The translations under genes and the position numbers were made by a program. A stretch of 12,109 nucleotides of DNA, taken from Candidatus Hodarchaeota archaeon. Its GTDB lineage: Archaea; Asgardarchaeota; Lokiarchaeia; Sigyniarchaeales; SOKP01. Of this stretch, positions 2-8,939 are shown one piece after another (position 1 is the stretch's first letter; the number at the start of each line of letters is the position of its first letter). Below the pieces are notes generated by a model, which worked only from the letters and a program-made list of their open reading frames with translations, had not been told where the DNA came from and ran no database searches. The DNA lies in contig JBHLJY010000039.1 of assembly GCA_048887225.1 (NCBI GenBank), positions 1 to 12,109 on the forward strand, given 5' to 3'.

Positions 2-457
2 CCCGAAATAACAGAACCAGAACCACCCGAAATAAGAGAACCAGAACTACCCGAAATAAGAGAACCAGAACCACCCGAAATAAGAGAACCAGAACTACCC
101 GAAATAAGAGAACCAGAACCACCCGAAATAACAGAACCAGAACCACATGAAATAAGAGAACCAGAACCACATGAAATAACAGAATCTGAACTACCCGAAA
201 TAAGAGAACCAGAACCACATGAAATAACAGAACCTGAACTACCCGAAATAAGAGAACCAGAACTACCCGAAATAACAGAACCAGAACCACCCGAAATAAG
301 AGAACCAGAACCACCTGAAATAAGAGAACCAGAACCACATGAAATAACAGAACCAGAACCACATGAAATAACAGAACCAGAACCACCCGAAATAACAGAA
401 CCAGAACCACCCGAAATAACAGAACCAGAACCACATGAAATAACAGAACCAGAACCT
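2..457 (+). repeat. Coding tandem repeat: 19 contiguous 24-bp units, consensus CCC GAA ATA ACA/AGA GAA CCA GAA CCA
   Basis: Read unit by unit: exact 24-nt period (2-25 through 434-457) with no indels and no spacers. Variants are confined to codon 1 (CCC/CCT/CAT), codon 4 (ACA/AGA), codon 6 (CCA/CCT/TCT) and codon 8 (CCA/CTA/CCT). It probably continues upstream of the window. Confidence 0.98.
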
Positions 458-631
458 TCACCTCCCGAAGCACCAACCACATTGGAACAAATTAATGCTA
501 TTGAAACATCGGAATCACTTCAAACTCCTGATGAGGAAGGGAAACAAAAAATTCGTGAAATAGAAAAAGCTCTTAAAAAAGCTCGTAAAATAGAAAAAGC
601 TCTTAAAAAAGAAAAGAAAAGAGCGAAATAA
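2..631 (+). CDS. 5'-truncated protein, C-terminal part: Pro/Glu-rich 8-aa tandem repeats followed by a Lys/Arg-rich helical tail; function unknown
   Basis: Frame +2 is open from the window edge to TAA at 629-631: (PEITEPEP-like)x19, then SPPEAPTTLEQINAIETSESLQTPDEEGKQKIREIEKALKKARKIEKALKKEKKRAK*. Frames +1 and +3 contain stops within the repeat. It is absent from the ORF track, presumably because its start lies upstream of the window. Confidence 0.85.
   Translation, partial: PEITEPEPPEIREPELPEIREPEPPEIREPELPEIREPEPPEITEPEPHEIREPEPHEITESELPEIREPEPHEITEPELPEIREPELPEITEPEPPEIREPEPPEIREPEPHEITEPEPHEITEPEPPEITEPEPPEITEPEPHEITEPEPSPPEAPTTLEQINAIETSESLQTPDEEGKQKIREIEKALKKARKIEKALKKEKKRAK
554..613 (+). 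repeat. 30-bp tandem duplication encoding REIEKALKKA / RKIEKALKKE
   Basis: 554-583 cgtgaaatagaaaaagctcttaaaaaagct versus 584-613 cgtaaaatagaaaaagctcttaaaaaagaa: 27 of 30 positions identical. Confidence 0.93.
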
Positions 632-6792: not shown

Positions 6793-6909
6793 TTAATTCG
6801 GAGCCCCATCTGATATAATTTCTTTTTTCATCTCCCCTTTCTTATCTTTTTTTTGATCATACCAATATTTTTTCTTTCTTAGTATTCTACTTTCGCTTTT
6901 TTCTGCCAA
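6793..6909 (-). CDS. Possible 38-aa basic peptide (TTG start), or a frameshifted C-terminal extension of the 66-aa membrane protein
   Basis: The minus-strand frame is open from 6912 to the TAA at 6795-6793 and reads MAEKSESRILRKKKYWYDQKKDKKGEMKKEIISDGAPN* from TTG 6909. It overlaps the end of ORF 6879-7079 by 31 nt. Confidence 0.3.
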   Translation of the reverse strand: MAEKSESRILRKKKYWYDQKKDKKGEMKKEIISDGAPN

Positions 6910-7079
6910 TTTTTAACTATAACCATCATAATTACTAGCGAAATTACGTATATTATTAGGAATAGTGTCCACAAGATTAATTCTTCGTTATTGTTTTCTA
7001 TAGACGCTCTAATTATTCTATAAATGAAATATATACATAAAAGCCATAGTAATTGCATTCTTTGCTGTAGTTTATTCAT
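6879..7079 (-). CDS. Small hypothetical membrane protein with two predicted TM helices
   Basis: Two hydrophobic stretches (LLWLLCIYFIYRII; LILWTLFLIIYVISLVIMMVIV), basic termini, an acidic loop (ENNNEE), ATG start and an upstream AAGGT. Confidence 0.65.
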   Translation of the reverse strand: MNKLQQRMQLLWLLCIYFIYRIIRASIENNNEELILWTLFLIIYVISLVIMMVIVKNWQKKAKVEY

Positions 7080-7179: not shown

Positions 7180-7380
7180 ATGTCAAGAGAACCTCCTAAT
7201 TGTTTCATCTGTGGCAGTAACTATGTAGATTCAGTCGATCGTCTTCATTATTGCATATGTGATGTAACAATTTGCGATAAATGCATAAATTCAGTTAAAA
7301 AGAGCGAGCTTGCATGGATTTGCCCAAAATGTAAAACAGAAAACGATACAGAAAAAAGTAGATTATTTCATATGAAATAA
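7180..7380 (+). CDS. Stand-alone C4C4 cross-brace zinc finger, RING-like (Not4/CNOT4-type spacing); candidate minimal E3 ligase module
   Basis: Cys at 8, 11, 25, 27, 32, 35, 48 and 51 gives C-x2-C-x13-C-x-C-x4-C-x2-C-x12-C-x2-C. RING-type CxIC and CPxCK ends. Confidence 0.8.
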   Translation: MSREPPNCFICGSNYVDSVDRLHYCICDVTICDKCINSVKKSELAWICPKCKTENDTEKSRLFHMK

Positions 7381-7472: not shown

Positions 7473-7979
7473 ATGACAGCAAAAGTTATTTCAAAAGTTT
7501 TGGAAATAAATAATTGTAATAAAGATCTCTTACTGAAATCTATTTACAAATCAAAAATTTGGGAGGAAATTAGTCCAGTTTCAAAGATGGAAGCAAAATT
7601 TGTAGCTCCAAACGTAATGTACACTTATATAATCGATGAAATTAAGCTCACCATTGGAGATTTTTTAAAAGTTCCAATTGAAATGGAAGGTGAATTGGTA
7701 TTAATCGATAAAGGGGAACAAGAAGGTAAAGGACGATTGATTGAATTTAATATTCGAAAAAACAAGGATATTACTAAATTAGAGGGAAATATTCGGATTA
7801 GAGCTCTTTCGAATAATAAAACGAAAGTAGGAGTCTTTATTCATAATTTTTCGTTAAGTAACAATTTTTTTAGTTTGTTTGGAAGTGCTGCTGAACTGAT
7901 TTTACGGACAAAGATAACAGGAATTTTAAGAAATTTAGAGAAATGTTGTAAAACGAAAGATTTAAAGTGTTTTATATAG
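7473..7979 (+). CDS. Hypothetical protein, probable SRPBCC/START (Bet v1/CoxG-like helix-grip) fold
   Basis: 168 aa. N-terminal strand, then short helices ending in WEEISP (CoxG-like 'W...P'), several amphipathic strands (IEMEGELVLI, RLIEFNIR, KLEGNIRIR, TKVGVFI) and a long C-terminal amphipathic helix (AAELILRTKITGILRNLEKCC). The fold call is pattern-based. Confidence 0.55.
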   Translation: MTAKVISKVLEINNCNKDLLLKSIYKSKIWEEISPVSKMEAKFVAPNVMYTYIIDEIKLTIGDFLKVPIEMEGELVLIDKGEQEGKGRLIEFNIRKNKDITKLEGNIRIRALSNNKTKVGVFIHNFSLSNNFFSLFGSAAELILRTKITGILRNLEKCCKTKDLKCFI

Positions 7980-8090: not shown

Positions 8091-8939
8091 ATGAATATAT
8101 GGATAGTAGATTCGGATTCAGGAGTGACATTACTCTACAAACCGTATATTGATTTAGCCGTTGATGAGGATCTTGTCTCGGGATTGCTGACAGCATTAAA
8201 TCAACTAACTATGGTGGAATTCAGGGGGCAAGGGATCGAATCAATTGATATGGGAGGGCTACGCTGGGTGTATGTTTTGGAGAAAGAAGTACATTTATTA
8301 TTTATAGCAGCAGCAAATAAAGACGAAAAAGCAGAGATGCTTAGAGCCCGGTTAAACGTTATAAAACAATCATTTTTTCAAGAATATGTAAAAGATAAGG
8401 ATTATTGGGAGAAGACTTGGACTGGAGATATCGACATGTTTAAGCCATTTAAAAATACAATAGATGAATATTATCAAAATTGGCTTGCGGCTGAAAGTGT
8501 GACTACTCTAGCTGAGTTTTTCGATATTCTTGGTGTGTTCCAACAAATTTTTTTTGATATTCTTTCTGTCATCCAACATCAGCTAGCTGAGCTTCCAAAA
8601 AAGAGTATTTTAACTAAAATGGAAAAATTATTTGAAACTTATAGAAATAGTGATTATATAAAAAACAATCCTGAGTTAGAAAAAATTACTTTTTCTCGTG
8701 ATTCAGGGATTAATATAATTACCATTAATCCTAATAAATGTGATACGATGGTTGTAGAAAAACAAGTTATAAATTTAATGAGAAGGTTAGTAAATATGAT
8801 TAAAGACGAAATAGGACATGAAGACAGCCTTAAGTATTTTGTACAAGAGGGGGTGTTTGATTATATTTTAAACAATATATCACTTTTAAATCAACTTAAT
8901 TTAGATAGATTCTTATTAAAACTTTTTCTACAAGAATAA
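8091..8939 (+). CDS. Longin-like domain protein (N-terminal about 130 aa) with an uncharacterised, mostly helical C-terminal domain
   Basis: NIWIVDSDSGVTLLYKPY (beta hairpin with the typical SG turn), DEDLVSGLLTALNQL (helix), IESIDMGGLRWVYV and LLFIAAA (three strands), then two helices (MLRARLNVIKQSFFQEY; FKPFKNTIDEY). This is the bb-a-bbb-aa longin topology common in Asgard archaea. Confidence 0.75.
   Translation: MNIWIVDSDSGVTLLYKPYIDLAVDEDLVSGLLTALNQLTMVEFRGQGIESIDMGGLRWVYVLEKEVHLLFIAAANKDEKAEMLRARLNVIKQSFFQEYVKDKDYWEKTWTGDIDMFKPFKNTIDEYYQNWLAAESVTTLAEFFDILGVFQQIFFDILSVIQHQLAELPKKSILTKMEKLFETYRNSDYIKNNPELEKITFSRDSGINIITINPNKCDTMVVEKQVINLMRRLVNMIKDEIGHEDSLKYFVQEGVFDYILNNISLLNQLNLDRFLLKLFLQE

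Follow-up and report, generated by a model that had tools for sequence, protein, structure and literature searches.

The Locus and Its Genes

The window, that is, the whole stretch of 12,109 nt that was analysed, lies on contig C39 of a Candidatus Hodarchaeota genome of 3.27 Mb, which is 98% complete. The gene under study is a 66-codon ORF with an ATG start, present as a single copy in the host genome, and its product is referred to below as the finger. The features of the locus are the following:

6879..7079, reverse strand: small membrane protein of 66 aa with two helices, one of strong and one of moderate hydrophobicity, divergent neighbor of the finger gene; no Pfam family
7180..7380, forward strand: stand-alone C4C4 cross-brace (RING-type) zinc finger of 66 aa; based on conservation and the fold model
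7201..7332, forward strand: zinc-binding core, Cys8 to Cys51, eight ligands; based on ligand conservation, with two interleaved sites inferred from the fold
7357..7371, forward strand: C-terminal S/T-x-L-F/I-R/K tail; S/T in 65, L in 65, F/I in 65 and R/K in 64 of 67 members
7473..7979, forward strand: downstream SRPBCC/START (Bet v1-like helix-grip) protein; model pLDDT 91, Foldseek E about 1e-6, many Bet v1/SRPBCC structures
8091..8939, forward strand: downstream protein with an N-terminal longin-like domain; Fuz_longin_1 at E 0.02 and 0.01, below the cut-off

Re-reading of the DNA recovered the ORF as the sequence-only reading had placed it, with eight cysteines at residues 8, 11, 25, 27, 32, 35, 48, and 51 and the C4C4 spacing C-x2-C-x13-C-x-C-x4-C-x2-C-x12-C-x2-C. 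Residues Ile10, Ile31, Val39, Pro49, and Lys52 and the stretches RLHYC and WICPKC were likewise found where that reading had put them. The NCBIfam search of the finger returned nothing useful, and a scan with a sigma-70 promoter model, which is ill suited to archaea, gave matches at chance level. At the other end of the window, an open frame (2-631, forward strand) encodes an array of 8-residue Pro/Glu-rich repeats and runs off the contig start.

Distribution and Conservation of the Finger Family

The profile search showed a single intact copy of the finger ORF in about 125 (123-125) of the 154 genomes of the host's order (Promethearchaeia/Lokiarchaeia), with representatives in all four of its families, and at E 1e-5 in none of the remaining ~245 genomes of the phylum sample. 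One family of the order has a patchy distribution (3 of 14 genomes), and in three single-contig genomes of this family the finger was not found when all candidates were scored. The conservation of the ligands, the intact short frame in about 125 genomes and the one copy in the host confirm that the ORF is a real gene and not a chance reading frame. Homologues are about 61-80 aa long and the search found no longer fused forms, which is weak evidence according to the tool's own note; the stand-alone build proposed earlier is in agreement with both. In the ESM Atlas the family corresponds to an unnamed archaeal cluster of 194 members, and no paper joining Asgard, C4C4, and RING was found in the literature searched. 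The finger apparently represents an undescribed, order-restricted family of stand-alone C4C4 RING-type microproteins.

All 67 aligned homologues share seven of the cysteines, and 65 of them retain the fourth. The best-conserved residues besides the ligands are Tyr24 (67 of 67), Asp28 (64), Trp46 (65), and the S-x-L-F-R tail, in which Ser/Thr60, Leu62, and Phe/Ile63 are each kept in 65 members and Arg/Lys64 in 64; the host's own finger has His at residue 64, in place of the Arg/Lys of most members. Pro49 is also kept, in 66 members. On the other hand, the loops differ in length, with x11-14 between ligands 2 and 3, x1 or x2 between ligands 3 and 4, and x12-16 between ligands 6 and 7. The C-x-C-x4-C-x2-C core is found in the host finger and in about 60 of the 67 members, while six have C-x2-C/D. 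An ancestral C-x2-C spacing, from which C-x-C would have derived, was considered but found no support, as the poorly resolved tree requires three changes; the origin tree comprises 62 columns and settles neither the origin of the family nor the order of the spacings.

Some sequences deserve separate mention. In one member (L062:4001-4207, genome G037) a Phe replaces the fourth cysteine; the adjoining conserved Asp might act as ligand, or the Phe might be a sequencing error. A distant paralogue-like protein of 84 aa with eight cysteines (L085:1968-2222, genome G054) shows weak RING and SLX1_C matches. The sequence of a record with a Thorarchaeota title (L004 / L033) is identical to that of a genome assigned to the host's family, and the title is probably a mislabel.

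Fold and Structural Relatives

The AlphaFold2 model of the finger (pLDDT 93, pTM 0.79) consists of a hairpin (residues 22-32), a four-residue helix (36-39), two strands (45-47 and 54-56) and a bridge at 61. Nearly all the best Foldseek rows are RING domains, none of which reaches E 0.001. In the exhaustive structural search the RING of Slx1 ranks first (Z 6.1, rmsd 2.6, 60 aligned residues, model residues 2-65), and a second structural search likewise places it first. It is followed by Nse1, the atypical PHD of VIN3, and the CTLH and FANCL RINGs with Z 4.7-5.0 (VIN3 up to 5.3). All these Z scores are below 8, a range in which a match may reflect a common arrangement only. The fold class of the finger, as given by the model, is secure; its subfamily is not. 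FYVE, RIM/Slp, and p44 structures are absent from the best 50 structural rows, an absence which does not exclude them.

A cross-brace rather than two sequential zinc ribbons had been anticipated, and the predicted structure agrees with this, since it aligns over its full length with interleaved RING-type domains; sequential ribbons are disfavored for the same reason. The eight cysteines would accordingly hold two zinc ions in interleaved sites, as judged from the model. The archaeal protein HVO_2753 has four Cys pairs yet binds one zinc (PMC11241148). Archaea are already known to possess RING-type proteins and a functional E1-E2-RING cascade, and the fold alone is unsurprising.

The likeness to Slx1 (atypical C4HC3 RING, PDB 4zdt), which includes a possible role in partner binding (PMC4726241), has its differences. 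The Slx1 RING carries His at ligand 5, is attached to a nuclease and is 18% identical to the finger. The RINGs of TFIIH p44/Ssl1 and TMEM129 resemble the finger in being all-Cys cross-brace domains (PMC5737387, PMC4024746), but they belong to larger eukaryotic proteins, and both are absent from its top sequence or structure matches.

Relationship to Not4/CNOT4

The interpretation made from the letters alone stands as regards a RING-type fold, a stand-alone build and a host with ubiquitin, but the special link to Not4/CNOT4 on which it centered does not. The Pfam family zf-RING_4 is indeed the best match of the host finger, but its 20.5 bits lie under the curated cut-off of 27, and FYVE_2 follows with 18.1 bits. 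Across the members zf-RING_4 is the top match in 59 of 67, while about a dozen zinc-finger families respond. Against solved structures the family profile matches RBBP6, TRIM32, Slp4, PHDs, RIM2, RNF4, and Not4, all within E 0.001-0.007. The structural comparison that had been proposed as a check gave CNOT4 only Z 3.5 at rank 46, with Slx1 as the best match. The spacing is variable within the family, and the single residue by which the last loop departs from human Not4 carries little weight, because yeast Not4 has x13 there.

The two proteins are alike in their eight cysteines, the C-x-C-x4-C-x2-C core (in most members) and the cross-brace (Not4/CNOT4: PF14570; PDB 1e4u, 1ur6, 5aie), and Not4 Leu35, Ile56, Cys60, Glu69, and Pro75 have equivalents in the finger (PMC4431670). 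Unlike Not4, the finger has a short helix followed by a hairpin, lacks the GYQ motif after ligand 4 and possesses the conserved Tyr, Trp, and tail as extras; the equivalents of Not4 Ile37, Glu38, Leu70, and Arg78 are unconserved in the family. Two accounts give RRM, C3H1, and a Not1-binding region as the domain set of Not4 (PMC5970261; PMC4431670), and the 66-aa finger has none of the three. A search of the host genome for Not1, the scaffold of CCR4-NOT, run without a positive control, gave no match.

That the finger is an orthologue or the direct ancestor of the Not4/CNOT4 RING is the least credible of the readings considered, although besides the Pfam ranking yeast Not4 is the second phmmer match (E 0.02) and the C-x-C-x4-C spacing is identical in most members. 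Apart from the weak scores and the missing motif and domains, the restriction of the family to one order, its lack of detection in the other Asgard groups sampled and the shifts of spacing inside it speak against such an ancestry. The resemblance is generic and the finger is not a Not4 orthologue, given that the match is sub-threshold, that many finger types score alike, that other all-Cys RINGs exist and that RRM and C3H1 are missing. A spacing like that of Not4 can come about without descent from Not4 and should not, by itself, count as a eukaryotic signature.

The Predicted E2-Facing Surface

The Not4-Ubc4 interface (PMC4431670) was mapped onto the finger through the alignment with the Not4 sequence, and each position was counted over the 67 members. 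One set of positions is largely kept: Leu35 corresponds to Ile10 (aliphatic in 51), Ile56 to Ile31 (hydrophobic in all 67), Cys60 to Cys35 (kept), Glu69 to Glu43 (acidic in 52), and Pro75 to Pro49; Val39 is aliphatic in 61. Three of these residues, Ile31, Cys35, and Pro49, are structural as well. The other set varies: Ile37 corresponds to Gly12 (G/K/N/E across the family), Glu38 to Ser13 (K in 42), Leu70 to Leu44 (mostly K/T/N/S across the family), and Arg78 to Lys52 (K/R in 42; G in 8, N in 7, Q in 5, and E in 2).

Hence the hallmarks of E2 contact that had been proposed hold in part. Ile10, Ile31, Val39, and Pro49 are largely kept, but the equivalents of Not4 Ile37 and Leu70 are polar and the helix is short, and the basic linchpin assigned to Lys52 does not extend to the whole family. 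In detail, the central helix of the model comprises four residues and is followed by a hairpin, whereas the Not4 helix is long and carries the E2 site. A Trp located four residues after ligand 6 in several C4HC3 RINGs of the host is absent from the finger. Co-folding of the finger with the host's second E2 and two zinc ions scored 0.02 against a mark of 0.32, a result which is uninformative either way.

The Ubiquitin System of the Host

The presence of ubiquitin, E1, and E2 in the host, on which a ubiquitin-related role depends, was confirmed. A cluster on contig C2 encodes JAB, an E2, E1, ubiquitin, and a RING protein of 691 aa; a second E2 and a second ubiquitin are also encoded, and the longer C4HC3/RING-type proteins are nine in all. 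On contig C2 the two E2 genes occupy 178063-178590 and 237464-237973. E2 was detected in 152 of the 154 genomes of the order and, being near universal, does not discriminate between the possible roles of the finger. No gene for E1, E2, JAB, or ubiquitin was found in 61 finger loci covering 314 kb.

The Asgard C4HC3 RINGs (Prok-RING_1-like) share with the finger the x4 spacing between ligands 4 and 5, and members with C-x2-C match their spacing exactly. The family profile aligns with those of the host at probability 87-91 over 50-55 columns. They differ from the finger in having His at ligand 5, in their longer helix and in forming part of proteins of 176-691 aa. The p44/Ssl1-like vWA-RING proteins of relatives count among their variants.

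The two host E2s (L006:1429-1938 and L007:1468-1995) differ at the RING-binding surface, and both patterns are conserved: one has a basic first helix and no Phe in loop 4, the other a canonical YPF loop and an acidic first helix. An orthologue of the second E2 in genome G005 (L147:1282-1785) has Gly replacing the catalytic Cys, and in genome G039 (L117/L118; C123:16742-17295) the E2 of the operon is split in two, perhaps through a frameshift or an assembly error.

Gene Neighborhood

In the host's family the gene order is the divergent membrane protein, the finger, the SRPBCC protein, the longin-like protein and often a transporter. The finger and membrane genes occur together in 115 genomes, less than 400 bp apart in 108 of them and less than 1.5 kb apart in 113. 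One genus of another family has them as a tandem pair with only a few bases in between, so that the adjacency is kept after re-orientation. In the host's family it may be plain synteny, as the genomes are related and the other neighbors are kept equally well. An obligate pair of finger and membrane protein was rejected, since either can be present alone: the membrane gene in eleven genomes of the family that includes the tandem-pair genus (three of them single-contig assemblies), and the finger, with no membrane gene detected, in five incomplete genomes (63-88%) that belong to two further families.

The neighbors differ in other lineages, where RadA, an Arf-type GTPase and a vWA-RING protein are found, or a longin-like protein, a Urm1/ThiS-like protein and a Rab-like GTPase. 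For instance, in genome G001 the region downstream of the finger (L049:4325-6530) encodes an Arf-type GTPase extended at length on its N-terminal side and a vWA (Ssl1-like) protein that contains two C4HC3 RINGs, in a layout like that of TFIIH p44. At L065/L066 (3378-8590) the finger is the last of a three-gene run opened by a longin-like protein; genes for a long coiled-coil protein, a deacetylase, a Rab-like GTPase and a Urm1/ThiS-like protein are located close to this run. In genome G010, which has no finger, a different eight-cysteine protein of ~130 aa (L076:1518-1973) directly follows the membrane gene on the same strand. Most relatives in the host's family (e.g., L001:2434-2715) have a conserved coiled-coil gene (92-120 aa) upstream of the membrane gene; no such gene was detected in the host. 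The longin-like protein of the window also has a full-length paralogue in the host (C30:8589-9434, reverse strand), and 13 host proteins match the profile of the window protein; proximity to a longin gene is weak evidence because such genes are abundant in this genome.

Adaptor or Ubiquitin Ligase

The reading tentatively preferred, which falls somewhat short of an even chance, is that this two-zinc cross-brace RING-type microprotein is a small protein-binding adaptor and not an ordinary RING ligase. The eight cysteines would bind two zinc ions and hold a compact domain. On it Tyr24, Asp28, and Trp46, with the S-x-L-F-R tail folded back on the central sheet, would form a surface under selection, binding a second copy of the finger or a partner, as the RINGs of Slx1 and p44 do. 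The likeliest partners, guessed from gene order, would be the neighboring small membrane protein and the longin products, which would bring the finger to a membrane. In RNF4/IAP-type RING dimers an aromatic tail primes ubiquitin. By analogy with other RINGs, the conserved Tyr, Asp, Trp, and tail appear to be positioned on or near a sheet face away from the E2 site, and this surface could be a partner site of the Slx1 and p44 kind or a dimer surface serving a ligase of the RNF4 type. The Slx1 RING is required for Slx4 binding, with ligase activity not shown (PMC4726241), and the C4C4 RING of p44 serves subunit binding (PMC5737387). An adaptor is favored because Slx1 is the best match, the E2-facing positions are only partly kept, no ubiquitin genes lie nearby and a membrane gene is adjacent. 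Adaptor and ligase cannot be told apart by the fold, since all Z scores are below 8 and true E3 RINGs (FANCL, TRIMs, CTLH, and Nse1) come close behind Slx1. The core E2-facing residues (Ile10, Ile31, Val39, Pro49, and the acidic residue 43), being largely kept, would argue against an adaptor.

These same residues are an argument for a minimal RING E3 without a substrate domain of its own, a possible reading to which roughly one chance in three would be given. E2~ubiquitin would dock on the Ile10/Ile31/Val39/Pro49 face; possibly the protein would form a homodimer with the conserved aromatic tail priming ubiquitin and would be recruited to the membrane through the neighboring small membrane protein. 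Many E3 RINGs are among the top structural matches, and ubiquitin, E1, JAB, and two E2s are all encoded by the host. Moreover, the basic first loop of the finger could suit the second E2, the first helix of which is acidic. The C4C4 RINGs of CNOT4 and TMEM129 are E3s (PMC4431670, PMC4024746), and a stand-alone small archaeal RING, the srfp of Caldiarchaeum subterraneum, is a proven E3 which likewise has no separate substrate domain (PMC5654768). However, srfp is a RING-H2 protein within a ubiquitin operon, with functional Trp58 and Arg69 tested by mutation (PMC5654768), whereas the finger is all-Cys, lacks the Trp and lies outside a ubiquitin operon, its gene never adjoining ubiquitin genes. 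The variable linchpin position (G/N/Q/E in 22 of 67), the short central helix without Trp and the two polar positions in place of Not4 hydrophobic contacts also stand against a ligase, as do the nine longer C4HC3/RING-type proteins that the host already has, one of them within the ubiquitin cluster. A role in trans like that of Rbx1/Apc11, suggested earlier for such an E3, is unsupported: a search of the genome run without a positive control gave no cullin match, and Rbx1/Apc11 are RING-H2 proteins with an N-terminal cullin-binding strand, whereas the all-Cys finger of the host has only 7 residues ahead of its first cysteine, a stretch that varies in the family. On balance an adaptor appears likelier than a ubiquitin ligase, either activity being predicted only.

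A split membrane-anchored RING ligase, in which the finger and the small membrane protein would form an archaeal counterpart of the MARCH/TMEM129 type and use the host E2s on membrane proteins, is improbable. TMEM129 itself is a membrane-anchored E3 (PMC4024746). If the finger is a true ligase, and above all if it is tied to the membrane protein, it would bear on the origin of membrane-linked ubiquitin ligases.

Other Zinc-Finger Affinities

An origin outside the RING domains was weighed as well. An offshoot of the pan-archaeal HVO_2753/aS21-type zinc finger (PF07754), which would act on RNA or the ribosome and be unrelated to ubiquitin, is unlikely, yet several comparisons point toward it. 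Both are stand-alone archaeal proteins of the same size (55-65 aa in HVO_2753/aS21) with four Cys pairs and a similar first knuckle. Sequence matches to ribosome-bound HVO_2753-like proteins (E 0.014-0.07) come close to the RING matches, and the HVO_2753-like ribosomal protein 9fhl_a aligns with the model at Z 4.2 (rmsd 2.1, 49 aligned, 26% identity). For divergent members, the alignments to aS21 and to Asgard C4HC3 RINGs have an equal probability of 92, and in the 62-column tree the family groups with aS21 and separately from the C4HC3 RINGs (90/88, long branches). That tree is poorly resolved, however, and the whole-family profile covers 13 columns of aS21, against the 50-55 of C4HC3 RINGs. 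PF07754 is not listed among the Pfam matches of the host finger, the spacing between ligands 4 and 5 is x7 in aS21 and x4 in the finger, and the other conserved motifs differ. Furthermore, a true aS21 gene is already present in the host and in 45 of 46 sampled Asgard genomes, and the genes around the finger are not translation genes.

A FYVE- or PHD-like reader of a phosphoinositide, a small GTPase or a modified peptide is less probable still. The FYVE domain is defined by the motifs WxxD, R(R/K)HHCR, and RVC, and the PHD is a C4HC3 finger with His at ligand 5. RLHYC and WICPKC had been taken as possible echoes of these two domains, an impression that is not supported, because the defining motifs are missing: the three FYVE motifs are absent, Arg21 is found in 16 and His23 in 38 of the 67 members, and ligand 5 is the invariant Cys32. 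With E values of 0.1 or less, FYVE_2 responds in 43 of the 67 members, in addition to its score in the host finger; FYVE itself scores 13.4 bits against a cut-off of 27.8. The fingers of Slp4, RIM2, and melanophilin are among the sequence matches, the atypical VIN3 PHD reaches Z 5.0-5.3, and longin or small-GTPase genes lie close by in several lineages, the longin genes being of little weight as noted above. Trp46, two residues ahead of ligand 7, is another PHD-like feature; a Trp at this place also occurs in SP-RING and RanBP2 fingers and is not diagnostic, nor is W-x-C-P-x-C, which is common to several finger types. In the model a strand and not a helix follows the last cysteine, against the FYVE and PHD arrangement.

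Two further candidates were rejected. A RanBP2/NZF ubiquitin-binding finger is represented only by half a motif (W-x-C-x2-C-x3-N), with no TF motif. The B-box has a similar Y-C-x1-2-C-D-x3-C-x2-C stretch, but the last ligand pair of the finger is a CxxC located twelve residues on.

The host encodes a second small stand-alone cross-brace protein of 72 aa (C7:109945-110163, reverse strand; L150), with C-x2-H followed by three CxxC pairs, an x4 spacing and weak Pfam matches to C1_4 (TFIIH p44) and IBR. In the ESM Atlas, several unnamed clusters of Thermodesulfobacteriota, with proteins of 69-78 aa, resemble the finger (features 0.91-0.92, TM 0.63-0.67).
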